Positions 4,711-44,045 of a stretch of DNA of 64,000 nucleotides are shown one piece after another. A program made the translations under genes and the position numbers. This DNA comes from Patescibacteria group bacterium (GTDB taxonomy: Bacteria; Patescibacteriota; Minisyncoccia; Phycocordibacterales; SBAW01). The stretch lies in NCBI GenBank assembly GCA_040389385.1, contig JAZKAA010000003.1, positions 39,295 through 103,294 on the forward strand, in the 5' to 3' direction. The notes below the pieces were generated by a model that saw only the letters and a program-made list of their open reading frames with translations, had not been told where the DNA came from and made no database searches. Each line of letters opens with the position of its first letter. Positions within the stretch are counted from its first letter, which is position 1.

Positions 4711-6210
4711 ATGCCTCTATCCGGCGCACAGGAGATTACGGCGCTTATGCGCTCGCCCAGCTCGGCTGATAAGGAGCTGGTGGAAAAGGCCTACGCCTTT
4801 GCGATGGTCGCGCACAAGGACCATAAGCGCTACAGCGGCGAGCCATACATCGGCCACCTGGTAGAGACTGCCAAAGGCTTGGCCGGGCTCGGGCTGTCGG
4901 CCAAAACAGTCGCGGCCGGTTTATTGCACGACAGTATCGAGGACGCGGGCATTTTACCCGAGACATTGGAAAAGGAGTTCGGCAAAGAGATACGATTTTT
5001 GGTGGAGGGCGTAACCAAGCTCGGACACGTTAAGTACCACGGAGCGGAGCGCCATCGCGAGAGCATGCGCAAGCTGCTGGTGGCAACCGGCAAAGATGCG
5101 CGGGTTTTGATAATCAAGCTGATGGACCGCCTGCACAATATGCGCACGCTTGTGCATGTGCCCGAGGCCAAGCGTGCGCGCATTGCGCTGGAGACACTAG
5201 AAATATACGCAGCCATTGCCCACCGCTTGGGTATGGGGCTCGTCCGCCGCGAGTTGGAGGACCTTGCGTTTGAGTATGCTTTGCCGGCAGAGTTTAAAGA
5301 AACAAAAACGCTCCTCAACACTCAAAGCCGCACGACGCTCGAGCGTCTGGAAAAGATGGTCAAAACGCTGCGCAAAGAGTTTGGAAAAAATGGCATCACC
5401 AAGTTTCGCACCGACGCGCGGGTTAAGGGCCTGTACAGCTTGTACCGCAAACTGCAGCGCAAAGAGGGCGATATAGAAAAGATTTATGACATCGCGGCGC
5501 TGCGCATTATTGTGCCAAGCGTCACCGACTGCTACCGCGTCTTAGGATTGGTCAACAATATTTGGCAGCCGCTGCCGGGCAAGATTAAAGACTACATTGC
5601 CTTCCCCAAGCCCAACGGGTATCAATCGCTCCACACCACCGTCTTTACCGGCGACGGCGGCATTGTCGAGGTACAAATACGCACCGAGGAAATGCACGCC
5701 GAGGCCGAGCTTGGTATCGCCGCGCACGTCGGCTACAAAGAGGGCGCGCCCAAGTCGGGCAGCTTTGACTGGATAAAAAGTCTGGTGCCCGGCTTTAAGA
5801 GGGAGAAGGCCGCCGAGGACGCCGCGCACAAGCGCTACAGCGCGATAGGTGCGCCCGACTGGCTAGCCGACATAGGCGACGACGCACAAGAGCCCGATAT
5901 CGAGACGGCGCTTAAGACCGACCTCTTTAGCCGCCGGGTGTTTGTCTTTACCCCCACGGGCGATGTCGTCGACCTCCCCGCCGACTCGTCCCCTATCGAC
6001 TTTGCGTACGCGATACACTCCGACATCGGCGACCACGCGTTTGGTGCCAAGGTCAACGGCAAGATGGTCCACCTGGACACACATCTCCACAACGGCGACA
6101 TTGTCGAGATACAAACGCGAAAGACTGCCCACCCCTCAAAAAAATGGCTCGACTTTACCAAAACCACCATGGCGCGTCGCCACATCCGCAACGCGCTCGA
6201 GAAGCAGTAG
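4711..6210 (+). CDS. rel: bifunctional (p)ppGpp synthetase/hydrolase Rel/SpoT homolog (short form: HD + synthetase + TGS, no ACT)
   Basis: 499 aa; HD motif (HDSIED), RelA/SpoT synthetase region (RIIVPSVTDCYRVLG...), TGS-like C-terminus (GKMVHLDTHLHNGDIVEI). Confidence 0.88.
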   Translation: MPLSGAQEITALMRSPSSADKELVEKAYAFAMVAHKDHKRYSGEPYIGHLVETAKGLAGLGLSAKTVAAGLLHDSIEDAGILPETLEKEFGKEIRFLVEGVTKLGHVKYHGAERHRESMRKLLVATGKDARVLIIKLMDRLHNMRTLVHVPEAKRARIALETLEIYAAIAHRLGMGLVRRELEDLAFEYALPAEFKETKTLLNTQSRTTLERLEKMVKTLRKEFGKNGITKFRTDARVKGLYSLYRKLQRKEGDIEKIYDIAALRIIVPSVTDCYRVLGLVNNIWQPLPGKIKDYIAFPKPNGYQSLHTTVFTGDGGIVEVQIRTEEMHAEAELGIAAHVGYKEGAPKSGSFDWIKSLVPGFKREKAAEDAAHKRYSAIGAPDWLADIGDDAQEPDIETALKTDLFSRRVFVFTPTGDVVDLPADSSPIDFAYAIHSDIGDHAFGAKVNGKMVHLDTHLHNGDIVEIQTRKTAHPSKKWLDFTKTTMARRHIRNALEKQ

Positions 6211-11657: not shown

Positions 11658-13625
11658 TTAATTATTCGCATAATTTTTTACACATGTGCTTGCGGCCGCG
11701 TTCCATGGTTGACCATACGCGGTGCCTCCACATCCTGACGGGGAATTACATGTGCCCGTCCACGGCTGATATGGGTTGTTGGGGTTAGCATTCATCAGCG
11801 CTATGGCCACCTGCTGGTTGCACTGCACGTTATTTTGGGCGGCGGTTATATTTCCTCCAAAATCAGCCGCGGTGCACCCGGACGGAGCGTACTTGGTCCA
11901 ATTGCCTCGCGTAATTTGGAAAGCGCCGCACGCATTGGTATCACTACAGCCTACAGAGTTGCCGGACAGTTCAGTCACGGCTATACACGACATCACATTA
12001 GCTTGCGTTTGCGTCATTCCGAGTCCGGCAAGTGTACCAACATCGCAGTTGGTATTACCGGTCATACATTGAGCGTAACCTCTCGAGCCACCGCTGATCC
12101 CGCCGCCAGGAACCTCCTTCCAATTATCTTCGTTGTTGGGGTTGTTTGGATCAAAGGTGGTGCCGTTTTTTTGACACCAATATTCTTTACCGTCATTTGC
12201 ACATGCGTATCCCGCTCCGCAATTGCCGCAAATATCCCCGCCCACATAGCCTTGATTTTGTCCCGACGTGTATTGAGAGGTGTAGCCGCCCACTGCAACT
12301 CCCGGCTTGCTGGTATCCAAGCCGCCGTTTTGACCAAACACGGAGTTAAATAACTTGTCCAACGAGGTTGTGTTGCCGTTGGGGCCGAGGATTGTGCCGG
12401 CGCGCTGGGCCTTTGAGCAATCGAGCCGATTCCAACTCTGATACTGCTGCGGATTTAAAATAAATTTGAGCATAGTCTGGATAATGAGCCATGCGGAGAT
12501 AGCGATAAGAAAGCCCCAAAACGCAACGCGCAGAGCCGCCTTGGCGCGCTCAATATTGCTTAGGCTCGATGCGGAGGTAAAGTACAAAATGCCCGCCCAT
12601 GCAAACATCAATGCCGCAATGGGTATCGAAAATCCGATGACAAAGTTAATTATTTTTTGCCCGAGAGATGCAAAGTCGCATAGCTGACAATTGAGCCCTG
12701 TACACACTTGCGCGATGCCAGGGCCGGTGCTCCCGTTGGTTGTGGCCGGCGTAACGGTTGTCTGCTGGCCCGGGGTCACGGTGCCCGCGCCGGCCGAGCC
12801 CGGAGTGCCAACCGCGCCCGGGGCACCTACTGACCCGCCTGAGTCGACACCGCCCGGGTCGACAAAGCTCCCGTTGCTGGGGTTAAACGTGATGGGTACC
12901 GAGCACGTGCCCGTGCCGCCGGGGCCGGTAAAGGTGCCTGTATATGTCGTCTGCACATTTGAGGACAAGGAGGTCGGGGGCAATATCCCCTGCTGGCCGC
13001 TCGGGCCTACAGAGCCCAAGCCCGTGATGGTGCCGCCGGTCGCGTCGACACTCTGCCACTTGAGCGTGACGGTTTGGCCGGTGGTGTAAGTGCTTGGGGT
13101 GGCAAAAATTTGGCATGTCGGTTTTTGGACGCCGCTGTTTAGCGTCAGCTGCGCGCCAAATAGAGGCAAGGCGCCGTTGACCACTGCCGACGTGTTGATG
13201 GCGGTGATGTTTATGTCAAAAAACTGGCCCTGATTAGCCGTAAGGTTGCCCGCCACCGTCGCAAACACCACTACCGTGCGAGCCTCGCCTGAAGGGATAG
13301 AAAGCGACAGCGGCACGGTTGCGGTGCCTCCCGACAACGTCGCCGACCCTAGCGTATTGTTTTGAGTATCAACCGCAGTGAGCTTGGTAACAACGCTGTC
13401 GGGGGCTGAGCCCACACGCTGCACTGTAATGCTGCTGATAGTCGCGGCGCTGCTTGCAGTAAAGGTAACCGCCACCGCCGGCAAGTTGGCACCGGGCATA
13501 ACGGTAGCGTTGGGCGGCTGGCCGCCGTTAGGCGTACTGACGCTCACCAACGGCACCGTCTGTGCCATAGCAAGCATCGGGGCCAAATATGCAACGACCA
13601 ACACAAGGGCAAAGACCCGCTTCAT
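11658..13625 (-). CDS. large secreted mosaic protein: signal peptide + beta-rich repeat region + Cys-rich segment + embedded VirB2/TrbC-like two-TM 'pilin' module + C-terminal lysozyme-like (SLT/goose-type) domain
   Basis: 655 aa. Signal peptide MKRVFALVLVVAYLAPMLAMAQT. T/S/G-rich beta region. CTGLNCQLCDF followed by two hydrophobic helices (INFVIGFSIPIAALMFAWAGILYF ... VAFWGFLIAISAWLIIQTML) resembling the small paralogs at 26.1-27.5 kb. C-terminus has E-L-S ... GAFQI, reminiscent of SLT motifs ExS / GLMQ. Confidence 0.6.
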   Translation of the reverse strand: MKRVFALVLVVAYLAPMLAMAQTVPLVSVSTPNGGQPPNATVMPGANLPAVAVTFTASSAATISSITVQRVGSAPDSVVTKLTAVDTQNNTLGSATLSGGTATVPLSLSIPSGEARTVVVFATVAGNLTANQGQFFDINITAINTSAVVNGALPLFGAQLTLNSGVQKPTCQIFATPSTYTTGQTVTLKWQSVDATGGTITGLGSVGPSGQQGILPPTSLSSNVQTTYTGTFTGPGGTGTCSVPITFNPSNGSFVDPGGVDSGGSVGAPGAVGTPGSAGAGTVTPGQQTTVTPATTNGSTGPGIAQVCTGLNCQLCDFASLGQKIINFVIGFSIPIAALMFAWAGILYFTSASSLSNIERAKAALRVAFWGFLIAISAWLIIQTMLKFILNPQQYQSWNRLDCSKAQRAGTILGPNGNTTSLDKLFNSVFGQNGGLDTSKPGVAVGGYTSQYTSGQNQGYVGGDICGNCGAGYACANDGKEYWCQKNGTTFDPNNPNNEDNWKEVPGGGISGGSRGYAQCMTGNTNCDVGTLAGLGMTQTQANVMSCIAVTELSGNSVGCSDTNACGAFQITRGNWTKYAPSGCTAADFGGNITAAQNNVQCNQQVAIALMNANPNNPYQPWTGTCNSPSGCGGTAYGQPWNAAASTCVKNYANN

Positions 13626-14162: not shown

Positions 14163-14204
14163 GCCCCAGCCTTGTGCCGGGGCTTTTTTATTACGTACTT
14201 TTAG

Positions 14205-21983: not shown

Positions 21984-22085
21984 GGATAAAGTAAGGGCTC
22001 TGGCCACGTGGCGAAGAAGCAACGCGGCGGTCTGCAAAACCGCTATGCGAGGGTGCGAATCCCTCCGTGGCCTCACGTTTAAAAT

Positions 22086-22175
22086 GCCGGGGTGATGGAA
22101 TTGGTAGACATACGGGACTTAAAATCCCGAGAGGAATTAAACACCCTCATGAGAGTTCGAGTCTCTCCCCCGGTA
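22086..22175 (+). tRNA. tRNA-Leu (anticodon TAA), type II, no encoded CCA
   Basis: GCCGGGGTGATGGAATTGGTAGAC..., anticodon loop CTTAAAA, T-arm GAGAG-TTCGAGT-CTCTC. Confidence 0.8.
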
Positions 22176-22177
22176 CT

Positions 22178-23047
22178 ATGTATCCCTACGGCCCATGGAT
22201 CGAGCAGTTGCCGAGCGGCTATGTGCCCCGCCAACAATGGCCCGAGTATGACATTACGACCACGCTGCTCCCCAGAGCTCACCCCCGCTACGTGGGCTCA
22301 GGCACGCGTTGGGGTATGTGGCCCCTCTATTTTGAAGAGTATGTACAACAAGCCGAGCCTGTACTGTCTCCCCAACGCAAAGACCCTGCACGCATAGTTA
22401 TATGGCAACGCGTCGTCCCTCTCGGTAGATGTATCGGTTGGACGCAATTTTCTTTTAAGCCTGCAAAGCTTGAGGGATTTTCCATGCTCGAGCCAGGAAT
22501 GCCGTACGAAAAAACGTGGTCCGAATCGGCACGGCGGTATCTCAAAAAATGGCGCACGCAGTATGCAGGCACGCAGTATGTCATAGAGCCCATCACATAC
22601 GAGGAATTTGCAGAGACATACAAGGACGGTACCGTATATAAACACGCACAGGAGTATCAATTGAGGGTCGTTAAGGCTCTCCTCGGTTCTCCCAAAAGCC
22701 GGCAACACACAACACTGTGGGGAGCGCGGCGTCTTGATATAGGCAAGATAGATGCGACGCTTGTTGTAGTGTCTTCTCCCTCTACCCACTCTTCGTATTA
22801 TCAAGCGGCGTGTATCCGCCGGAATATCGCCGACGCCCCTCTTATGATTGGGCTTATGGACCATTGGCACGCCTACGCAGTTACAAACGGAATCAAGTTT
22901 CTGCACTTTGGCGGATTTTGGAAACCCGGCGACCCAAAGCAATGGAAAGGGTTTTCTCTATTTAAGTCCAAATTTAATCCTCAGTACATCGCCTATCCCC
23001 CGGCGCTATTCCGTTTCGCTAAAGGCACTATACTGAGACGTACATGA
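22178..23047 (+). CDS. FemAB/CelD-like GNAT-fold acyl/aminoacyl-transferase family protein (start adjusted past tRNA-Leu to MYPYGPW)
   Basis: C-terminal QWKGFSLFKSKFNPQYIAYPPALFRF resembles the FemAB/Acetyltransf_6 signature (...FK.KFG...); paralogous to the C-terminal half of the next gene (TRWGMWPLYFEEY vs TRWCLWPLCFELY). Confidence 0.55.
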   Translation: MYPYGPWIEQLPSGYVPRQQWPEYDITTTLLPRAHPRYVGSGTRWGMWPLYFEEYVQQAEPVLSPQRKDPARIVIWQRVVPLGRCIGWTQFSFKPAKLEGFSMLEPGMPYEKTWSESARRYLKKWRTQYAGTQYVIEPITYEEFAETYKDGTVYKHAQEYQLRVVKALLGSPKSRQHTTLWGARRLDIGKIDATLVVVSSPSTHSSYYQAACIRRNIADAPLMIGLMDHWHAYAVTNGIKFLHFGGFWKPGDPKQWKGFSLFKSKFNPQYIAYPPALFRFAKGTILRRT

Positions 23048-24483
23048 GTTGGCTGACCCGAAAAGACGTTGTCCCCTCGCCAAAAAACGGCGAAATAATT
23101 ACCCGCCGAAGAGGTAGAGCTCAAGAAGTGTTTGTAAAAGGCTGCGGCCAGACCACCGACTATACCAACGCCATGTGGACAGGGGCGTTTGAGCGCCTTG
23201 CTGTTCGTCCGGTACGCCCCGCAGTACTTATGCTAGGCCTTGGCGGTGGCGGCGGTGTCTCCCTTCTGTACGAATATTTTCCCGGCTGCACCATTACAGC
23301 GGTGGAGTACGATCCGGTAATGATAAAACTGGCGCGGGAAGCTCTTACACAACAGGCTGTCACCCTTCCAACGATAATGGAGATGGATGCCGCATTAGTA
23401 TTTAGCCACATTGCAGAAAAGTTTGACGTCATTATTGTGGACCTCTTTGACGGACCGGAACCGTCCTTACTGTCTAAAGATACGACATACCTCCGGGCGC
23501 TGCAGGCACACCTAAACCCTTCTGGTGTCGTACTACTCAATGTATACAAAAATAAAGAATACCTAGAAGCGGCTTCAGGGATCTTTGGATGGTCTGACGT
23601 ATGGACCTACAAAGAGAATCATCTCGGCGCTTTCCGCACTACTGCTGTTGGGTTTACTCCGCCCGATGCATGGAAGGAGTACGGCATGGTCGCTCTACCC
23701 GCGCCCTTATGTCGTCGCGAAAATGTTGAGGGAGGTACGCGGTGGTGTCTATGGCCGCTGTGCTTTGAGCTCTACACAAGCGATACCGAGCCCAACATTG
23801 CGTCCAACGCGCATGGCGCGCTTGCCTACAATCGCATTGTGCTGTGGAAACGGGTTGCCCGCACGGACGTGCCTGCCGGATGGCATGCACCTATGCGGCC
23901 GCGACCGTGGCGCACAGACGGTTTTTTTGAATTACAATCCGGCGTCGATTACACCGAGCTATGGCATAAGAAAGCTCGTCATGATGTGCGTAGGTGGCGC
24001 GAGGACGCCGCCGCAGGGAAATACCGTGTCGAACCGTTGTCATTTGGGCAGTTTGCCGAATCGTATAAAAAAAGTACGGCATACAAAAAAGCCGGGTCTC
24101 ATTTACTCGAGATATTTGAACGCAAGTGGGCGCTGCCGGAGACGCGCGCACAACTCGTGTTGTGGGGCGTACGCGATGTTGTAGCAAACAAAATAATTGC
24201 AGGGATGGCTGTACATTATCCGCCGAGCCAGAGTGCCTCTGTGCGTGAGTGCCCCTTTATGCTCAAAGAGGCCACGTCATCGCATGCAATGACCGGAGTT
24301 ATGGATTATTGGTTTGCCGAGTCACAGCGACGCGGAGTTATGTATCAGGTGTTTACCTATTTTTGGCAACGCGGAGACTCTCGGCAGTGGAAAGGGTTCT
24401 CCGTCTTTAAGTCGCACTTTGTGCAGCAGTATGTCGTGTACCCTCCCCTCTTGTGGCGGTTTGTCCGCGACAAATTTTGGTAA
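23044..24483 (+). CDS. fusion protein: N-terminal spermidine-synthase-like (class I SAM-dependent MTase / aminopropyltransferase fold) domain + C-terminal FemAB/CelD-like domain
   Basis: N-domain VLMLGLGGGGGVSLLYEYF...AVEYDPVMIKLAREAL...DVIIVDLFDGPEP (SpeE-like GGGDGG and DVIIvD motifs). C-domain ends QWKGFSVFKSHFVQQYVVYPPLLWRF, paralogous to 22178-23047; 4-nt overlap with the upstream gene. Confidence 0.55.
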   Translation: MSWLTRKDVVPSPKNGEIITRRRGRAQEVFVKGCGQTTDYTNAMWTGAFERLAVRPVRPAVLMLGLGGGGGVSLLYEYFPGCTITAVEYDPVMIKLAREALTQQAVTLPTIMEMDAALVFSHIAEKFDVIIVDLFDGPEPSLLSKDTTYLRALQAHLNPSGVVLLNVYKNKEYLEAASGIFGWSDVWTYKENHLGAFRTTAVGFTPPDAWKEYGMVALPAPLCRRENVEGGTRWCLWPLCFELYTSDTEPNIASNAHGALAYNRIVLWKRVARTDVPAGWHAPMRPRPWRTDGFFELQSGVDYTELWHKKARHDVRRWREDAAAGKYRVEPLSFGQFAESYKKSTAYKKAGSHLLEIFERKWALPETRAQLVLWGVRDVVANKIIAGMAVHYPPSQSASVRECPFMLKEATSSHAMTGVMDYWFAESQRRGVMYQVFTYFWQRGDSRQWKGFSVFKSHFVQQYVVYPPLLWRFVRDKFW

Positions 24484-26014: not shown

Positions 26015-26097
26015 ACGAAAGTAGCGCGCCGCTTTATTTCCCGACGCTCTGGTCGGGACCCCGACCGCTTTCGCGCGTCGGGGTTTATTTTTTTAAT
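26015..26097. terminator. triple-hairpin bidirectional terminator region; its last two hairpins (26040-26097) form a repeat shared with 58726-58770
   Basis: GGCGCGCTAC-gaaa-GTAGCGCGCC, then CCCGAC-gctctg-GTCGGG, then CCCCGAC-cgctttcgcgc-GTCGGGG followed by TTTATTTTTTT. Confidence 0.6.
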
Positions 26098-26344
26098 GCA
26101 GCGAATTGACCGTATTTTGTATCAGCGTCAGTATCCCAAACGACGCGACCATAATAAACATGCCCACCACGCCCCATAGCATGTGCTGCTTGCCGGTGTT
26201 GCTCTCTTTGCCGCCCACGTTGGCTGCCCACAAAAATTGCACTAACCCCCAGATAAACACCACAAGCGCGATCCCAAAAATAAGCAGTATCGCGGGGTTG
26301 ATAAGCACTCTCGTCACGTTGTTGACGAGTGTCGTAACGTCCAT
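26093..26344 (-). CDS. small two-TM protein, VirB2/TrbC-like pilin-family paralog 1 (83 aa)
   Basis: Pattern hydrophobic helix-FIWGLVQFLW-Gly/Lys loop-MLWGVVGMFIMVASFGILTLIQNT; array of four similar genes. Confidence 0.55.
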   Translation of the reverse strand: MDVTTLVNNVTRVLINPAILLIFGIALVVFIWGLVQFLWAANVGGKESNTGKQHMLWGVVGMFIMVASFGILTLIQNTVNSLH

Positions 26345-26353
26345 ACAGTTAGC

Positions 26354-26632
26354 TTAGCGTTGTGGGACCTGCGGGATAGCCACCGGCGCCACCGAGACGC
26401 CGAGCGTGTTTTGCATCAAGCGGATGATACCCCAGACCGAGACCATCACAAAGAGTGCCAAAAGGCCTGCGATCATGATATGTCTACCGCTTGCGGCATC
26501 TTTGCCTGCACCTTTAACGTACTTAAAGAGACCCCAGAAAAAGATAATGACTGTAAGCGCAATGACTACCGGGATAAGCCGGTTGAGTGTGTCCCCTACA
26601 AAAGCAATGAGCTGCGGGATGTTGGATAGCAT
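26354..26632 (-). CDS. small two-TM protein, VirB2/TrbC-like paralog 2 (92 aa)
   Basis: IIFFWGLFKYVKGAGKDAASGRHIMIAGLLALFVMVSVWGIIRLMQNT. Confidence 0.55.
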   Translation of the reverse strand: MLSNIPQLIAFVGDTLNRLIPVVIALTVIIFFWGLFKYVKGAGKDAASGRHIMIAGLLALFVMVSVWGIIRLMQNTLGVSVAPVAIPQVPQR

Positions 26633-26700
26633 AAAAATCTATAAATGGTTATGTTAGTAAGTGTAGCATCCTCTAAACGGGCAAGGCCGGGCTCTGTGGA

Positions 26701-27033
26701 TTACGGCTGCCACTGTCCATAAGAGCTCGGACTGGTAAAGTTGGACGCCGTACCCGCATTTGGGGTCCCGCAATTTGACGCGAGCAAAGAGTCGCAGGCT
26801 ATACGCAGTATCCCCCAGATAGAAAAGAGGATAAACAGCGCCACGAGGCTCCAGACCATTGTTTTCCGGCGGCTTCCTGCACTTTTGCCTCCGGACGATT
26901 GGTATACATACTGAAACGCCCCCCACATAAACAAGAGCACCGCGGCTGCAGCCAGCACCCCCACCAGCTGATTGAGTATCCCCACAAGGTAGGCAATGAC
27001 CGAGGCAAACGTGGCAGTGGATGAGGTGACCAT
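26701..27033 (-). CDS. small two-TM protein, VirB2/TrbC-like paralog 3 (110 aa)
   Basis: LLFMWGAFQYVYQSSGGKSAGSRRKTMVWSLVALFILFSIWGILRIA. Confidence 0.55.
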   Translation of the reverse strand: MVTSSTATFASVIAYLVGILNQLVGVLAAAAVLLFMWGAFQYVYQSSGGKSAGSRRKTMVWSLVALFILFSIWGILRIACDSLLASNCGTPNAGTASNFTSPSSYGQWQP

Positions 27034-27453
27034 TTAGTTGCAGGTGAGAATATTGGCGCCGCCTATGGCGTTGATGGTGCCGGCTATAATCATCGCCAAG
27101 ACCCATGCGCCCACAAACAGCGCTATGCCTATAACGGTGTAATAAAAGTTGCGGCGCGCCGCCTGTAAGTCTTTTGGCTTGCCTTGCGCCAGGACAAACC
27201 TAAAGCCCGACCAAATAATAAACAGTACCGCCACAGGGATCCCGACAGCGACAGCGCCCTCGAGGATCTTTTTGAGCAGGCCGCAGACGCTGGTTACCTG
27301 GAGCGGATTGTTGACCGAGTAGGAGCCGTTAGAGGGTGTCGGTTGAGGTGTATCAAATGTAGCGGCTCCCGCCAACAGCGGCGCAGAAATCAAAAACATA
27401 ACAACAAGCCCGATAATAAACCGCTGCCTATATAAAGCTAAAGCCATATGCAA
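27034..27453 (-). CDS. small signal-peptide + two-TM protein, VirB2/TrbC-like paralog 4 (139 aa)
   Basis: Signal peptide; VLFIIWSGFRFVLAQGKPKDLQAARRNFYYTVIGIALFVGAWVLAMIIAG; directly abuts paralog 3 (no gap). Confidence 0.55.
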   Translation of the reverse strand: MHMALALYRQRFIIGLVVMFLISAPLLAGAATFDTPQPTPSNGSYSVNNPLQVTSVCGLLKKILEGAVAVGIPVAVLFIIWSGFRFVLAQGKPKDLQAARRNFYYTVIGIALFVGAWVLAMIIAGTINAIGGANILTCN

Positions 27454-32861: not shown

Positions 32862-33613
32862 CTAACCGTCTGGATATGTCCGGATTGCCTCAAACTTACA
32901 CGCGTCAAGGATGTCCCGCTCATCCGGCTTGACTAGCCAGTGAGCGGGGCGATTGCGAATAGGCCGCAGTGTGTCGTTGGACAAACGCCGTAAGACATCC
33001 ACCTGGAGCGCGTGCTCTTGCCGCAGTATGCGGCGCTTGAGCCCCTTTGGAGTATCCACTTTTGTACGGTCGTTGATGTCGACACGCCTAACACCAAGTA
33101 CCTCGCCCCGGTCGAGCTCACCGACCCGATGCGCGACGGCCTCGGTCCAGTAATTGCGCTCCACCCTGCGACAAAAAAGTATTGCGGTCTGCATCACACG
33201 GCGCCCATGCATACCCTTGCCACCATAGTCATAACCGGGTGGTGCTTTTGGATCGAGACAGCCCGGATGCTGGTTGACCGACATATTGCGGAAGTGCTTT
33301 GCAACCGCGTCCGGGGTCAGCGGCAACAGGCCATACTGCCCCAAAAATTGATGCCGTACCTTTTGCAGTTGGTGAGGATAAAGTCGGCGAGCATGTCCGG
33401 GTCTTTGGAGTAGCCCTTGGGATACACCAAGATGCGCTCGCGCGGGACCCCCTCCTCCTGCATCAAGCTGATGAGCCCGGCCTTTTCCGAACTGGCAAAC
33501 ACCAGGCCAATCTGGACCTTGGGCAACCGCCCATCCTTGGTGGCGCGCTGGATAGTCGCCATCGTCGTACCGCCGCCACTGCCGGCGACAGCCGCATTAA
33601 TACTGATCATGGT
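32862..33613 (-). pseudogene. purN: phosphoribosylglycinamide formyltransferase (PurN/formyl-transferase family)-like gene split by a 1-nt frameshift in a homopolymer run (ORFs 33317..33652 and 32862..33344)
   Basis: N-part MISINAAVAGSGGGTTMATIQ...VQIGLVFASS matches the PurN N-terminus (iavliSGsGsNl...). C-part LAGYGLLPLTPDAVAKHFRNMSVNQHPG...EAVAHRV...DT...L..RIL..EHAL matches the PurN core. Frames switch at plus-strand run ccccaaaaatt (~33339-33349). Confidence 0.55.
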
Positions 33614-33683
33614 GCAGTCCTCTCTTCCGTAGACAAACCGATCCGCCCCCACCTTACTGCATCATGCGCAGTAGTTCAAATTT

Positions 33684-33707
33684 AGGTACGTACATAATTA
33701 CGTACTT
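33684..33707. repeat. two phased direct repeats AGGTACGTACAT / AATTACGTACTT (12-nt period) upstream of the purN-like operon
   Basis: Read directly; similar element at 40822-40857. Confidence 0.5.
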
Positions 33708-33712
33708 TTGCT

Positions 33713-33740
33713 ATGCTAGTGTTTTGCAAAACACTAGCAT
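33713..33740. promoter_or_regulatory. 28-bp perfect palindrome ATGCTAGTGTTTTGCAAAACACTAGCAT sharing the GT-TTTTGCAAAA-AC core with the ArsR operators
   Basis: Read directly; ~60-90 nt upstream of the purN-like gene start. Confidence 0.5.
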
Positions 33741-33933
33741 AAGGAAATTATGAGCTCCAAAATATTGTCTTTAAAAATGAAACTACAACGTCAATAATAT
33801 CCACCTTCGGATTGCGATACACTATCAGACCAAAAGCTATCCCGAGGAAAAGTAAAATAACTATAAAAGTTATATTCATGCCATTACTCTACCAAAGAAA
33901 AAGCCCGCGAGTAATCTCGCGGGCTACATCGGC

Positions 33934-39723: not shown

Positions 39724-40824
39724 ATGTCTAAAGAAGCTGAACAAGTTGATATTGATGTACCTGCATCCGTGATGCAGGCCTTTGCCGAGCAGGCACAGGA
39801 GGTCCCGCGCGAGGGCGAGATAGTCGAGGGCAAGGTTTTGGCCTTGGACCGCGCACGGCTCTACATCGACCTGCCGCCGTGGGGCACGGGCATTATCTAC
39901 GGACGCGAGTATATGGCCGCCCGCGAGGTCATCAAGCGCACCAATGTCGGCGATATTATCGCCGCCAAAATAATCTCCACCAATACCAAAGACGGCTACA
40001 TCGAGCTCTCGCTCAAAGAGGCGCGCCAGGCCGCCACATGGGCGCAGGCCGAGGAGATACTCAAGAGCAAGGCTTTGCTCGAGCTGGTTATCAAAGAGGC
40101 AAACAAGGGCGGGCTTATTATCGAGTGGCAGGGTCTGAGTGGCTTTCTCCCCGCGTCGCAGCTCAAGGCCGAGCACTACCCGCGCGTAGCCGACGGCGAC
40201 AAGGACAAAATACAAGTCGAGTTGCGCAAACTGGTCGGGACTAAAATTCCGGTCTCGGTAATCGGCGTCAGTCCGAAGGAAGGCAAACTAATATTTAGCG
40301 AAAAGGGCGTTGATGATAAAGAAAAGCAGGAGCTCATACAAAATTACAATGTCGGCGACACCGTTACCGGCGAAGTTACGGGCATGGTTGACTTTGGCGT
40401 CTTTGTTAAGTTGGAAGAGGGCTTGGAGGGCCTCGTGCACATAAGCGAAATTGACTGGGGCTTGGTAGATGACCCGCGCCACTTCTTTAAGGTGGGCGAA
40501 AAGCTCAAGGTTAAGATAATTGATATAAAAGAGGGCAAGATAAGTCTGTCTGTGAAGCAGCTCAAGGACAACCCGTGGCAGGTCGCAAGCGAAAAGTATC
40601 ACAAGGGCGACAAAGTCGAGGGCGTGGTGATTAAATTTAACAAGCACGGCGCGCTCGCCTCTATCGAGGAGGGCATCGCAGGGCTTATCCACGTCAGCGA
40701 GTTTGGCACCGAGGAGGGTCTGCGCCGCAACCTCTCGCTCGGCAGCCGCTACCCGTTTACAATCTCGTTGTTTGACCCCAAGGAAATGCGCATGGCACTC
40801 TCCTACACCGGCGACAAGAAATAG
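39724..40824 (+). CDS. rpsA: 30S ribosomal protein S1 (compact four-S1-domain form)
   Basis: 366 aa; repeated S1 OB-fold motifs (GEIVEGKV..., GDTVTGEVTGMVDFGVFVKL, GDKVEGVVIKFNKHGALASI). Confidence 0.9.
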   Translation: MSKEAEQVDIDVPASVMQAFAEQAQEVPREGEIVEGKVLALDRARLYIDLPPWGTGIIYGREYMAAREVIKRTNVGDIIAAKIISTNTKDGYIELSLKEARQAATWAQAEEILKSKALLELVIKEANKGGLIIEWQGLSGFLPASQLKAEHYPRVADGDKDKIQVELRKLVGTKIPVSVIGVSPKEGKLIFSEKGVDDKEKQELIQNYNVGDTVTGEVTGMVDFGVFVKLEEGLEGLVHISEIDWGLVDDPRHFFKVGEKLKVKIIDIKEGKISLSVKQLKDNPWQVASEKYHKGDKVEGVVIKFNKHGALASIEEGIAGLIHVSEFGTEEGLRRNLSLGSRYPFTISLFDPKEMRMALSYTGDKK

Positions 40825-40857
40825 TACGTACATAGGTACGTACCTAAGTACGTAATA
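40822..40857. repeat. three phased direct repeats TAGTACGTACAT / AGGTACGTACCT / AAGTACGTAATA (11-12-nt period) in the convergent rpsA / response-regulator intergenic region
   Basis: Read directly; followed by the bidirectional terminator AAAAAAACCGCCTCGTCA-cttt-GACGGAGCGGTTT. Confidence 0.5.
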
Positions 40858-40871
40858 AAAAAACCGCCTCG

Positions 40872-41558
40872 TCACTTTGACGGAGCGGTTTGCGTTTGAG
40901 CGGGTTGTTCAGGGTGCTTCCAGGAGTAGCCAACTCCATACAGAGTCAAAATGTGATCCGTCCTGCATCCGACTGACCGAAGGATGTCGCGCACTTTGCG
41001 TATATTGCTATCCACCGACCTCATATCAAGGTGGCCGGGAATGCCATACCGGTCGGCAAGAAACTCACGGCTTACAAACTTGCCAGCGCGCAGGAGCAAC
41101 GCCTCGATAGCGCTAAACAGCGCTGTCGGGACGTAAATCTCTTCCCTCTCACCATACCGGATGCGGTGTGTCTCGATATCCACCTCAAGGTCGCCGGATC
41201 GTATCACCGATGACGCAAATCCGTGATATCTTCGCGCCACCGCAAAGAGCCTTGGCAAGAGTTCCTTCCGCGAGCAAACAAAGTCGTCTGCTCCCGCCTC
41301 AAGACTCTCAATCTCGCCGATTGCCCACTCGTTGTCGACCACGACCACGAGCGGTGCTGCTGCGAGTAAGTGGATTTTTGTTATGTCTGCAAAGTCGTCG
41401 TCAACCAACGTTGACCTCGCCAACACAATCGCGTCAGCCTTGCAGGAGTCGGCGAGCTCGACCGCCCTGCTTATGGACGTAACTTGCGAGACATGCCACA
41501 GGCGGCTTAGCGCCGTGGCTCCCCGAAGGCGGGCGTCGCCCACAACTATTGCACGCAT
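40872..41558 (-). CDS. OmpR-family response-regulator-like protein with an atypical (phospho-acceptor-less) receiver domain
   Basis: 228 aa. C-terminal winged helix YVPTALFSAIEALLLRAGKFVSREFL...LYGVGYSW (trans_reg_C). N-terminal receiver-like fold, but DD -> GD (IVVGDARL) and the DLVLLD phospho-Asp position reads AIVLAR; GADDFVCSRKELLPRL retained. No histidine kinase in the window. Confidence 0.65.
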   Translation of the reverse strand: MRAIVVGDARLRGATALSRLWHVSQVTSISRAVELADSCKADAIVLARSTLVDDDFADITKIHLLAAAPLVVVVDNEWAIGEIESLEAGADDFVCSRKELLPRLFAVARRYHGFASSVIRSGDLEVDIETHRIRYGEREEIYVPTALFSAIEALLLRAGKFVSREFLADRYGIPGHLDMRSVDSNIRKVRDILRSVGCRTDHILTLYGVGYSWKHPEQPAQTQTAPSK

Positions 41559-41630
41559 GGTCTCTCCTTGTCGTTATCCACCCCGAGCATACGCAAGGCC
41601 GGCTATGTAGTCAATTAAAAAACCGCCTCG

Positions 41631-42020
41631 TCATGTCGACGGGGCGGTTTTGGTTGATGGAGGCCGAAGTACGTACCCCCTCTTCATGGTCTGCGGCAAA
41701 TACAAATCCGCATCGTCCCCAAACTTTGACCTAAGGTGGTTGTAACAGGCGGTGACGATTCTTTGTTGCGGCAGCCCGCTGGACCCATAGATATGAAGAG
41801 CCAACGTTGACAAACTGACAGGGACACCGTTCCTAAGAGCAAGGTAGCGCAAAAGATTGTGCTCTTTTACACTTACACTCAAGAACTTGTCTTTGAAGAA
41901 AACCATAGTCGACACCAGACTAAGTTTGAGTTCCCCCACTACAATTTCGTAGGGATAAGGGCTCTTGCGTACACGTACATTCATGCCGTGTCTCCCCTGT
42001 TCCGTCGTGAGTATACCCAA
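41631..42020 (-). CDS. stand-alone OmpR-type winged-helix DNA-binding domain protein (129 aa)
   Basis: LSVSVKEHNLLRYLALRNGVPVSLSTLALHIYG...YNHLRSKFGDD...TMKRGYVL = trans_reg_C pattern without a receiver. Confidence 0.55.
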   Translation of the reverse strand: MGILTTEQGRHGMNVRVRKSPYPYEIVVGELKLSLVSTMVFFKDKFLSVSVKEHNLLRYLALRNGVPVSLSTLALHIYGSSGLPQQRIVTACYNHLRSKFGDDADLYLPQTMKRGYVLRPPSTKTAPST

Positions 42021-42073
42021 GCGCCGTTTTGCGGCAAGGCAATAAAAAAACCGCTCCCAATGTGGGGCGGTTT

Positions 42074-43039
42074 TTATGTGCGTGCGGTTATCATCTCCGA
42101 AAGCGACTGCCCGTCGTGCGTACGACGGATTGCCTCGGCGACTTTTGGCGCAAGCGACAGCACCGTTACCTTGACCCGCTTGGTCTCAAGCCGTTCCGGC
42201 GTATGAGGGATCGAGTCTGTGACGATAATCTCGGAGAACGGACTGTCATCAAAGATTGCCGCTCCTTTGGAAAAGAGCGCGTGCGTGGCAAAGGCATACA
42301 TGTCTTTTGCCCCGGCATCCTTTGCAGCCTTGGCGTTGGCAATAAGTGTGCCGCCGCTGTCGATGATATCATCGACAATCAGCACATGTTTGCCGGCAAC
42401 ATCGCCGATGATGTTCACCTTTTCGACGGCACCTGCATTTTTACGCCGCTTGTCGCAGATGACCAGACTTGCCTCGCCGTTGTTAAGGAGCTCGAGGTAC
42501 TTCGAGGCCCGGGGCACCGCACCATTGTCCGGGGCAGCAACCACGTAGTCCCCGCTGAGTATGGTGCGGAGGTACGGCACCGCCACGATAGAACCATAGA
42601 GGTGGTCCGTGACCATTTGGGGATGAAAGTGTGCTGCCGTCTGCTCCGAGTGGAGATCAAACAGCAACGCACGGTCAGCCCCGCGGTGTTTCAGCATATC
42701 CATCATCACGTGCGCGCTGATGGGTACGCGCGGCTTGTCCTTGCGGTCTTGCCGGTTGTAGCCAAGGTAGGTCGGCACGAGCGTGATGCGCTCCGCCGAC
42801 GAGTATCGGGCTGCCTCGCATAAAAGCATCATCTCGATCCAATTTTCCGCCGGCGGACACAGTGAGCCGACGATGTAGAGGTCGGCGCCGCGCACGTTCT
42901 GCTTTATCTCAACGCGCACCTCGCCGTCGCCAAAGCGCCCGACCAATGCGTCGCCAAGATTGACGCTAAGATGCCCGCAAATCTTTTCGGCGAGCACCCG
43001 GCCTGAGCCGGTGGCAAAAACCATCATCCTGTCAGCCAT
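42074..43039 (-). CDS. prs: ribose-phosphate pyrophosphokinase (start adjusted to MADRMMVFATGSG ~43038; the track ORF has a 60-codon TTG-started extension)
   Basis: Prs N-domain, PRPP-binding VLIVDDIIDSGGTL, C-terminal flexible loop. Confidence 0.88.
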   Translation of the reverse strand: MADRMMVFATGSGRVLAEKICGHLSVNLGDALVGRFGDGEVRVEIKQNVRGADLYIVGSLCPPAENWIEMMLLCEAARYSSAERITLVPTYLGYNRQDRKDKPRVPISAHVMMDMLKHRGADRALLFDLHSEQTAAHFHPQMVTDHLYGSIVAVPYLRTILSGDYVVAAPDNGAVPRASKYLELLNNGEASLVICDKRRKNAGAVEKVNIIGDVAGKHVLIVDDIIDSGGTLIANAKAAKDAGAKDMYAFATHALFSKGAAIFDDSPFSEIIVTDSIPHTPERLETKRVKVTVLSLAPKVAEAIRRTHDGQSLSEMITART

Positions 43040-43127
43040 GATGTCAAACTCCCGGTGAATTTTTTCGACGAATCCGCGCCAACTATACGCGAGTACGGAG
43101 TGGCAAGCAACAAAAAAACCGCCAATG

Positions 43128-43523
43128 TCATTTGGCGGCTTGTGTGTCGGGATTAATGAGCTTATAGCCCTTGGAACGCACGGATTTGATGAAGTTCTTC
43201 CCCTCGCACTGGCTCGCAAGGGCTCGCCGCAATAGAGATGCCTGCGTGTCCAGGTTTCGCTTGCATCGGCACTTAGAGCCGTAGAGATGTGTGTGCAACT
43301 TGTCGTGCTCTACCACCTCCTCGGCATCTTGTGCCAGACGATCAAGAAGCAAAAACGACTTCTTGAGCAACGAGACAGGCCTTCCTTTGTACATGACGCA
43401 TATCTGACTGAGATGAATAGCCAACCCGCCGAGCTGCACCACGCGCTCTTTTGTTGCCGCTTCTTGCATGCTCAACGCTCCCCTGTTCCGCAGAGAGTAT
43501 AGCGCCCCTACTCGCGCACGCAA
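43128..43523 (-). CDS. stand-alone OmpR-type winged-helix DNA-binding domain protein (131 aa)
   Basis: VSLLKKSFLLLDRLAQDAEEVVEHDKLHTHLYG...LLRRAL...IKSVRSKGYKL = trans_reg_C pattern. Confidence 0.55.
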   Translation of the reverse strand: MRARVGALYSLRNRGALSMQEAATKERVVQLGGLAIHLSQICVMYKGRPVSLLKKSFLLLDRLAQDAEEVVEHDKLHTHLYGSKCRCKRNLDTQASLLRRALASQCEGKNFIKSVRSKGYKLINPDTQAAK

Positions 43524-43526
43524 CCC

Positions 43527-44045
43527 TTAGCGGCTGTTTATTTCGCTCATCGCACGGTCTTTGCCGTGCTCTATTAGTAGCTCGAGCGCTTCGCCCACCA
43601 GTTTTTTAACTTTCTTTAGCTTTTCTTTGTCTGCGGGTTTAAATTTGCCCAGCACAAAGTCGGTAATCTTTTCGGGCGCGGGGCGACGCAGCTTGCCGCC
43701 CGCCGTTGCATTGCTTATCCCCACGCGCACGCGCACATACTCCTTGGTCTTGAGCGCCTTCTCTATACTTTTTACCCCGTTGTGCCCGCCAGCGCTGCTA
43801 CCGTAAGAGATTTTGACACGGCCAAGCGGCATGTCGAGCTCATCATGCACCACGACCAGATTTTTGCCCATGCCTATTGCCTTTTTTATCGCAGGACCGC
43901 TGTTGTTCATATACACATTCAGCTCTATCACCTTGGCGCCGGACAATTTGTCCTTAAGCTGCTCTACAAGCTCCTTGCCGACGTTGTGCCGGGTACTTGC
44001 GTACTCGTCGCCGGGGTTTCCCAATCCTACAATCGTGTATTTCAT
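43527..44045 (-). CDS. pth: peptidyl-tRNA hydrolase (start adjusted to MKYTIVGLGNPG)
   Basis: IVGLGNPGDEYASTRHNVG; HDELDMPLGRVKISYGSSAGGHNGVKSI. Confidence 0.85.
   Translation of the reverse strand: MKYTIVGLGNPGDEYASTRHNVGKELVEQLKDKLSGAKVIELNVYMNNSGPAIKKAIGMGKNLVVVHDELDMPLGRVKISYGSSAGGHNGVKSIEKALKTKEYVRVRVGISNATAGGKLRRPAPEKITDFVLGKFKPADKEKLKKVKKLVGEALELLIEHGKDRAMSEINSR

Follow-up and report, generated by a model that had tools for sequence, protein, structure and literature searches.

A predicted phosphorylation-independent regulator of the OmpR/PhoB type and two putative single-domain paralogues around prs in a patescibacterial contig

A window of 64,000 nucleotides (the whole stretch of DNA analysed here, from contig JAZKAA010000003.1 of a Patescibacteria group bacterium; all positions given below are counted within it) carries three genes for winged helix-turn-helix (wHTH) proteins of the OmpR family, which all fall within 2.7 kb around the housekeeping gene prs. 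We refer to their products as p228, p129 and p131. The first of them has a receiver-like domain in front of its DNA-binding domain, and this domain appears to have lost the aspartate that is phosphorylated in canonical response regulators together with most of the catalytic residues. We place p228 in the pseudo-receiver (atypical) class of OmpR/PhoB regulators, as a new member whose degeneration is unusually far advanced. We think it likely that all three are DNA-binding proteins that work independently of phosphorylation and whose activity would be set by their expression. The system is not new, in that it belongs to a known kind of phosphorylation-independent regulator. What is newly seen here is that the three wHTH genes are separate transcription units with control modules common to them.

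All three proteins exceed the gathering score of the Pfam effector domain Trans_reg_C (PF00486, 26.2 bits), with 37.8 bits for p228 (E=2e-9), 33.9 bits for p129 (E=3.3e-8) and 46.6 bits for p131 (E=3.7e-12). For the Pfam scan of the whole window, the gene products came from a gene call trained on codon usage. A response-regulator profile built from 68 canonical homologues was also run against the 907 stop-to-stop open reading frames (ORFs) of at least 40 amino acids in all six frames. It gave three matches only (95, 47 and 28 bits), the next one having an E value of 3.6, and it revealed no fourth OmpR-type copy and no canonical receiver in the 64 kb. A preliminary description of the locus, drawn from the letters of the DNA, had placed three OmpR-family wHTH proteins around prs, and they are indeed there, in the minus-strand ORFs that it gave. 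Pairwise identity among the three is 23-25%.

The p228 gene (40872-41558, minus strand) encodes 228 residues from an ATG preceded by an AAGGAG Shine-Dalgarno sequence. Its product is NCBI MES2202897.1, annotated merely as 'winged helix-turn-helix domain-containing protein'. The pseudo-receiver domain comprises residues 1-112 (41223-41558, minus strand), as delimited by alignments and by the DSSP assignment of an AlphaFold model, and it matches the KdpE receiver with a template modelling (TM) score of 0.74. The Pfam receiver model Response_reg (PF00072) finds no match at E<=1 in p228, p129 or p131. We read the catalytic positions of p228 from three independent alignments: a phmmer alignment to KdpE and RegX3, a MAFFT alignment with 126 relatives and a MAFFT alignment with 68 canonical regulators. 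All three give the same answer. At the acidic pair stand G7 and D8, so that the first acid is replaced by Gly and the second is kept, and the phospho-Asp position is occupied by A47, followed by R48. The preliminary description had read GD and Ala/Arg at these places; no correctly aligned Asp at the acceptor position has come up to contradict it.

In the AlphaFold model A47 lies where strand β3 ends, on its C-terminal side. Two further changes, which the preliminary description had not mentioned, are V74 in the place of Thr/Ser and a deletion that removes Lys-Pro-Phe from the end of β5: only 6 residues lead from GADD (89-92) to the conserved E99, against 9 in nearly all relatives. A deletion of that size at Lys-Pro-Phe is found in p228 alone (0 of the 126 other aligned sequences). 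In this way p228 has lost four of five catalytic positions (G7, A47, V74 and the Lys-Pro-Phe deletion). Comparison with the 68 canonical regulators shows that the Pro at D+4 and the Gly at D+8 are lost too (P51L and G55D), and degradation of these two residues is a mark of pseudo-receivers (PMC12632262). With four of five catalytic residues absent and a predicted (βα)5 fold, p228 is a pseudo-receiver as defined in the same survey. Judged by these residues, the receiver-like domain is incapable of His-Asp phosphotransfer, and since the acceptor and the catalytic residues are missing, the activity of p228 is most likely independent of Asp phosphorylation.

The two halves of the domain have fared differently. 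The half that would carry the phosphorylation site (β1-α3) has 13% identity to the consensus of the 68 regulators and keeps 3 of 11 conserved columns, whereas the β4-α5 half has 34% identity and keeps 10 of 18, with mostly conservative changes. The corresponding figures for the effector domain are 31% and 17 of 29. By this count the α4-β5-α5 half of p228 is conserved to the same degree as its DNA-binding domain. Among the residues kept in the receiver part are GADD (89-92), E99, R103 and R109-R110, and the columns P69, G89, A90, D91, D92, R103, R109 and R110 are invariant across all 69 sequences, p228 included.

The AlphaFold2 model, built on the 69-sequence alignment with a mean predicted local distance difference test score (pLDDT) of 82, shows a full (βα)5 N-terminal domain followed by a standard effector domain. 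The predicted receiver elements are β1 (residues 2-7), α1 (14-17), β2 (22-26), α2 (29-38), β3 (43-48), α3 (53-65), β4 (70-74), α4 (79-88), β5 (92-94) and α5 (97-111). Helix α1, with about 4 residues, is vestigial in the model. In the OmpR/PhoB family the kinase docks on α1 and on the β5-α5 loop, and activated regulators of this family dimerise through the α4-β5-α5 face. A degraded phosphorylation-site half beside a retained α4-β5-α5 half would therefore suggest that phosphorylation and kinase docking have been abandoned and that a dimerisation scaffold has been kept. If correct, p228 would most likely be a constitutive dimer held together by α4-β5-α5, in which both effector domains are positioned on DNA sites that occur as repeats; we propose this by analogy with the atypical regulators HP1043 and ChxR, and because the surface is kept. 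The analysis itself shows the domain content, the lost catalytic residues, the predicted folds, the signals of the transcription units and the non-coding modules in common; dimerisation, DNA binding, constitutive activity and co-regulation are inferred. A protein in which the phosphorylation site, the γ-turn and kinase docking appear to be gone, with α4-β5-α5 kept, would be a clear natural case in favour of the idea that dimerisation scaffolding is what preserves some pseudo-receivers.

About 6% of the receivers of bacteria are pseudo-receivers (Bourret et al. 2025, PMC12632262). Among proteins with Asp-less receivers, those with OmpR-type outputs are the most numerous, with 609 sequences or about 2% of receiver-OmpR architectures (Maule et al. 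2015, PMC4395418). Eighteen of the 20 characterised atypical regulators have no partner kinase of their own (kinase orphans), and many dimerise intrinsically, among them ChxR, HP1043, GlnR and RamR (PMC12632262). p228 is like this class in having a receiver fold that lacks catalytic residues, an OmpR winged helix and no adjacent kinase. It differs from the sets surveyed in PMC12632262 and PMC4395418 in being more degenerate: it is invisible to PF00072, and its Lys-Pro-Phe motif is deleted instead of substituted. Censuses of pseudo-receivers that are based on PF00072 hence under-count proteins of the p228 kind, notably in fast-evolving lineages of the Candidate Phyla Radiation (CPR).

Another potential role for the pseudo-receiver would be that of a sensor rather than a passive scaffold, with p228 still regulated by a signal that does not involve Asp. 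Both direct and indirect mechanisms of this sort are given as open for pseudo-receivers (PMC12632262). Candidates are Ser/Thr phosphorylation, redox chemistry on a cysteine (the case of RitR), a small-molecule ligand (JadR1) and a partner protein (Rem-MirA). A Foldseek search with the p228 model places two RitR structures (5u8m, 5vfa) among its neighbours, along with the atypical HP1043 and GlnR. In addition, p228 has three cysteines, one of which (C95) is beside the deleted Lys-Pro-Phe, and an acidic D53-D54-D55 in the β3-α3 loop. However, neither a Ser/Thr kinase nor a candidate partner was identified in the window, we found no orthologues in which a conserved sensing residue would show, and nothing specific points to a ligand. 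We regard regulation by such a signal as unlikely and prefer an activity that follows expression.

The effector domain of p228 (residues 118-216; 40911-41207, minus strand; PF00486 over residues 140-212) is modelled with strands within 118-135 and 203-213 and helices at 145-156, 164-170 and 179-195, which gives the complete fold of a 4-stranded sheet at the N-terminal end, three helices and a hairpin (wing) at the C-terminal end. The PhoB effector domain superposes on the model with a TM score of 0.84 and a root-mean-square deviation (rmsd) of 2.1 Å (Foldseek). The top Foldseek matches of the model are KdpE, RpaA, CosR, PrrA and PmrA, and MtrA and PhoP are also found. At the level of sequence, full-length response-regulator models (CtrA, PhoB and CreB among others; RegX3 and KdpE) span residues 22-215. 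Among the sequence matches in the PDB, RegX3 scores 54.9 bits, KdpE 41.2 and BaeR 40.7, and HP1043 (2hqr_A) 28.9 bits. The best NCBIfam model is CtrA (NF045991) and a word-based search returns mostly proteins annotated as ChvI, at about 30% identity. These types are the closest by sequence, yet their catalytic residues are intact and they work with partner kinases. We rejected the possibility that p228 is an orthologue of CtrA or ChvI, its scores being far under the family cutoffs (60.4 bits for CtrA against an equivalog cutoff of 350). A linker motif, RR..G..S.VI..GDL, is common to p228 and its top representative matches.

Loss of the acceptor is not confined to p228. An alignment of 127 sequences, consisting of p228 and its 126 best-scoring relatives of 200-270 amino acids, has an Asp at the acceptor column in only 74. 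Behind a canonical relative (P0002) a HAMP-HisKA-HATPase_c kinase is encoded, and a receiver-degenerate relative (P0062) has no kinase nearby.

The preliminary description had compared p228 with HP1043 of Helicobacter. HP1043 (HsrA) is an orphan OmpR/PhoB regulator with a highly degenerate receiver that works independently of phosphorylation (PMC8345958, PMC5253667). Foldseek finds its structure (2hqr) near the p228 model, at rank 25, but it is not an orthologue: its sequence match extends only from residue 69 onward and scores below many canonical regulators. HP1043 is moreover essential, a master regulator whose regulon has been mapped, which sets it apart from p228. The part of the comparison that stands is the atypical receiver, seemingly incapable of phosphotransfer; kinship with HP1043 does not. 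The likeness is one of probable mode of action and not of descent, and the two receivers have degenerated independently. ChxR of Chlamydia trachomatis likewise belongs to the atypical OmpR/PhoB regulators and comes from a reduced genome. It is not among the significant PDB sequence matches to p228. Its acceptor position is acidic (Glu) in contrast to the Ala of p228. ChxR dimerises, binds DNA and activates transcription without phosphorylation (PMC3960148), and a title cited in PMC4395418 has it binding direct repeats as a homodimer.

The two remaining proteins were described at first as about 130 residues long and consisting of the effector domain alone. The second half of this statement holds and the first probably does not. 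The maximal ORFs begin at TTG codons (42020 for p129 and 43523 for p131), and neither codon is preceded by a Shine-Dalgarno sequence. The internal ATGs at 41984 and 43469 are both preceded by GGAG. Moreover, TTG 42020 lies between the -35 and -10 hexamers of the predicted p129 promoter, and TTG 43523 is itself the candidate -35 of p131. We prefer the internal starts for these reasons, and the database records of both proteins also begin there. Hence p129 is probably 117 amino acids long (41631-41984, minus strand) and p131 probably 113 (43128-43469, minus strand; NCBI MES2202899.1).

NCBIfam response-regulator models match the short proteins with their effector part alone: positions 119-225 of PhoB align to residues 16-122 of p131, and positions 125-223 of CtrA to residues 24-120 of p129. 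Pfam detects no domain in either besides Trans_reg_C. The gaps upstream of the two genes, of just 57 and 89 nt, leave no possibility for a receiver remnant. The AlphaFold model of p129 has a pLDDT of 83.5 (about 90 over residues 11-110) and a predicted TM score of 0.76, with some 10 disordered residues at each end; Foldseek superposes it on the DNA-binding domains of GlnR, VicR, YycF, PhoP and PhoB with TM scores of 0.79-0.89 and an rmsd of about 2 Å. By their sequences, and for p129 also by its model, both are complete OmpR-type effector domains and single-domain paralogues. Crystal structures exist of isolated effector domains of this family bound to cognate DNA (PhoB 1gxp, GlnR 8hig, RstA 4nhj, OmpR 6lxn). 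Having no inhibitory receiver, p129 and p131 would be constitutively competent for DNA binding, and their activity would follow the amount of protein. In using the OmpR winged helix without a receiver they resemble the ToxR/CadC-type and SARP-type regulators. ToxR and CadC have in addition transmembrane and periplasmic sensor domains, and SARPs have a BTAD domain. p129 and p131 differ from both groups in having no additional domain in Pfam.

Several points weigh against the reading of the three as working, phosphorylation-independent regulators. The homologues aligned for the AlphaFold models are distant ones (25-30% identity). In p228 the Lys of α4 that makes the interface salt bridge in canonical members is, read by eye, apparently Glu (E82), and the three-residue deletion alters the β5-α5 loop, so that a canonical α4-β5-α5 dimer is not assured. 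Kinases may be encoded elsewhere in the genome, the scan being limited to 64 kb. Further, p129 has no NCBI accession on record, the searches described below yielded none of the orthologues needed to gauge purifying selection on the three proteins, and no other gene of the window scores as low in codon usage as the three wHTH genes (0.089 per codon for p228, -0.036 for p129 and 0.061 for p131, against a window median of about 0.22). Low expression, fast evolution or foreign origin could each account for such scores.

The last three points would also be expected if the wHTH genes, or p129 at least, were decaying remnants of former two-component regulators, with no function left. p129 is the weakest of the three in this respect, combining the lowest Pfam domain score with a negative codon score. 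Close homologues of the three are absent as well, among about 15 billion proteins. A word-indexed search of 5.8 billion clustered proteins returned only the proteins themselves for p129 and p131, and nothing above 32% identity for p228; in an exhaustive phmmer search of 1.84 billion representatives p228 found itself and then a match with E=2.6e-18 at 33% identity. Nevertheless, all three ORFs are intact and the annotated frame of each is the best of the six by codon usage. None of the genes lacks a Shine-Dalgarno sequence, promoter-like site or terminator, and the predicted folds are confident, that of p129 included. The short upstream gaps could not hide the remnant of a receiver, and the leader and terminator modules described below match exactly, which suggests maintained control regions. 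We consider decay improbable. As to the lack of relatives, a Prs probe against GTDB species representatives and JGI metagenomes found no related genome, only Prs proteins from unrelated phyla with 34-44% identity. With no homologue of its Prs above 44%, the lineage is very sparsely sampled. In the preliminary description a receiver-less, kinase-less set of OmpR-type regulators was taken for a hallmark of signalling-poor reduced genomes. This view has to be given up: there are no close homologues, and the set is thus lineage-specific rather than a conserved feature. Working regulators whose activity follows their expression remain the reading that we prefer.

The sequences around the genes are more alike than the proteins. 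p131, prs, p129 and p228 each end in a GC-rich hairpin of their own followed by a T-tract, and each is preceded by a promoter-like pair of the form TTGnnn/TATAnT that begins directly after the preceding terminator. With a terminator and a promoter-like site for every gene, an operon was rejected. The four are separate transcription units, and the proximity of the wHTH genes to prs is therefore without functional implication. For p228 the promoter-like site is TTGACT-17-TATGCT (41586-41614, minus strand) and the intrinsic terminator, an inverted repeat, is at 40861-40891 (minus strand), where the hairpin overlaps with the stop codon and stands ahead of a T7 tract. p129 has TTGCCG-16-TATACT (42010-42037, minus strand) and an intrinsic terminator, again an inverted repeat overlapping the stop codon, at 41619-41651 (minus strand). 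p131 has a -10 TATACT (43496-43501, minus strand), a weak -35 TTGCGT identified by eye (43518-43523, minus strand) and an intrinsic terminator with a 10-bp stem and T7 that also overlaps the stop codon (43110-43147, minus strand, inverted repeat). The inverted repeat terminating prs, which also has its own promoter-like site, is at 42046-42075 (minus strand).

Two of these signals recur. The 13-mer CGGAACAGGGGAG occurs exactly twice in the 64 kb, at the same position in the leaders of p129 (41992-42004, minus strand) and p131 (43478-43490, minus strand). In both it begins 4 nt past the same heptamer TATACTC, which extends the -10 TATACT by one base, and it covers the Shine-Dalgarno sequence, and the 24 nt around it are identical in 21 positions. 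The terminator arm GGCGGTTTTTT occurs exactly three times in the window, each wHTH gene having one copy at its 3' end, and the p129 and p228 terminators agree in 36 of 43 positions. The coding regions extend into the 5' arm of the hairpin, and the three proteins consequently have similar C-terminal tails (...KTAPST, ...QTAPSK and ...QAAK; the p228 arm is translated as ...QTAPSK). We read the three wHTH genes as a local paralogous family in which the flanks may have been maintained or homogenised as the proteins diverged. Because their -10, leader and ribosome-binding module is near-identical, p129 and p131 are probably co-expressed. An Rfam scan of the window gave tRNAs only, with no known RNA element in the wHTH cluster; the 64 kb contain 13 tRNA genes, a high density.

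An origin of the wHTH genes as cargo of a mobile element or prophage, lodged among housekeeping genes, may come to mind. Their codon usage is atypical, they are interleaved between the conserved pth and prs, and all three match phrog_731, a phage family of unknown function. This family, however, is just a 227-position profile resembling response regulators. There is no integrase, transposase or phage structural gene nearby and we found no flanking direct repeats; the prs terminator is moreover of the same type as those of the wHTH genes, which argues for native DNA. A mobile origin is thus very improbable in our opinion, and the interpretation as a local paralogous family is kept.

The absence of histidine kinases from the window, on which the preliminary description laid stress, is confirmed but says little. 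Pfam finds no HisKA, HATPase_c or Response_reg domain in the approximately 70 gene products of the window, and the HAMP-HisKA-HATPase_c kinase of locus L014, compared by phmmer with all six-frame ORFs, matches nothing below E=0.6. Metagenome-assembled genomes of the CPR have on average 0.289 kinases per 100 genes, and 81% of them carry kinases while 19% have none (PMC10805038). At this density about 0.2 kinases are expected among some 65 window genes, which makes their absence there almost uninformative. If the whole genome turned out to be free of kinases, OmpR-type regulators would run in it without two-component signalling, a tidy though not unprecedented simplification of regulation. The window does hold a complete RelA/SpoT homologue (HD_4, RelA_SpoT and TGS domains) at 4711-6210 (plus strand). 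The genome therefore keeps (p)ppGpp signalling, whatever its two-component content.

The preliminary description also spoke of a regulon and named intergenic repeats of the window as sites on which binding might be tried. Exact copies of GTACGTAC occur 5 times in the window where 0.53 are expected, and TACGTA-N6-TACGTA occurs 3 times where 0.09 are expected. Arrays of palindromes with a 12-bp period are found at 33686-33705 and 40824-40855. The second array consists of three tandem GTACGTA(C) palindromes and lies in the 47-nt spacer between p228 and the convergent gene of an S1-domain protein (39724-40824, plus strand). The clear intergenic copies directly follow terminator T-tracts, all of them with (T)nATTACGTACTT (14184-14200; 33696-33709; 40848-40864, reverse strand), and two of these three sites (14184-14200 and 40848-40864) are between convergent genes. 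We rejected the repeats as wHTH operators, given that they stand at the 3' ends of genes beside terminators and outside promoters. Nothing supports their binding by the wHTH proteins, and a regulon is not supported either. The TACGTA/GTACGTAC repeats may be terminator-associated elements or elements like repetitive extragenic palindromes, which their placement fits better than it does a promoter operator. One may still imagine a self-contained, kinase-free, lineage-specific module in which constitutively dimeric p228 would compete or cooperate with co-expressed p129 and p131 at repeated sites, possibly TACGTA-N6-TACGTA, with the ratio of the proteins alone setting the output and the leader and terminator modules co-controlling the paralogues. 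Such a module would amount to a minimal circuit of transcription control made up of nothing but OmpR effector domains. This elaboration is highly speculative and we hold it to be quite doubtful.

Next to the TACGTA pair there is a perfect 28-bp palindrome (arms ATGCTAGTGTTTTG and CAAAACACTAGCAT) at 33714-33741, flanked by a 43-codon minus-strand ORF (about 33750-33878, by eye) and the gene at 33317-33652.

Beyond the wHTH genes, the fragment with the cluster has a GC content of 55% and belongs to a contig of 106 kb. Reading the minus strand in the direction of transcription, the gene order is pth (43527-44045), p131, prs, p129 and p228, so that prs sits between the two short wHTH genes. The product of prs (42074-43039, minus strand) is a ribose-phosphate diphosphokinase of 321 amino acids, matching NCBIfam PRK01259 with 311 bits, and the gene call in Logan is likewise of 321 amino acids. 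Its start is most likely at 43039, and hence prs and p131 would not overlap. A separate 3.6 kb Logan contig carrying p131 is identical to the window base for base over 3,627 bp; as it probably comes from the same sample, it confirms the assembly and is no evidence of conservation. An exact look-up of p228 gave no match.

A few other genes of the window deserve mention. The 655-amino-acid protein encoded at 11658-13625 (minus strand) has a start resembling a signal peptide, regions rich in Thr/Gly/Ser and in Cys, and a hydrophobic segment in its interior; it has no Pfam match at E<=0.001. Two overlapping adjacent genes, 22067-23047 and 23044-24483 (plus strand), have in common a conserved C-terminal region without a Pfam match, which reads KQWKGFSLFKSKFNPQYIAYPP in the former and RQWKGFSVFKSHFVQQYVVYPP in the latter, and the second gene additionally encodes an N-terminal S-adenosylmethionine-dependent methyltransferase domain. 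Finally, a run of small membrane proteins is encoded at 26093-27453 (minus strand), with a Pfam match of the TrbC/VirB2 type, resembling pilins of type IV secretion systems, at 27034-27453.

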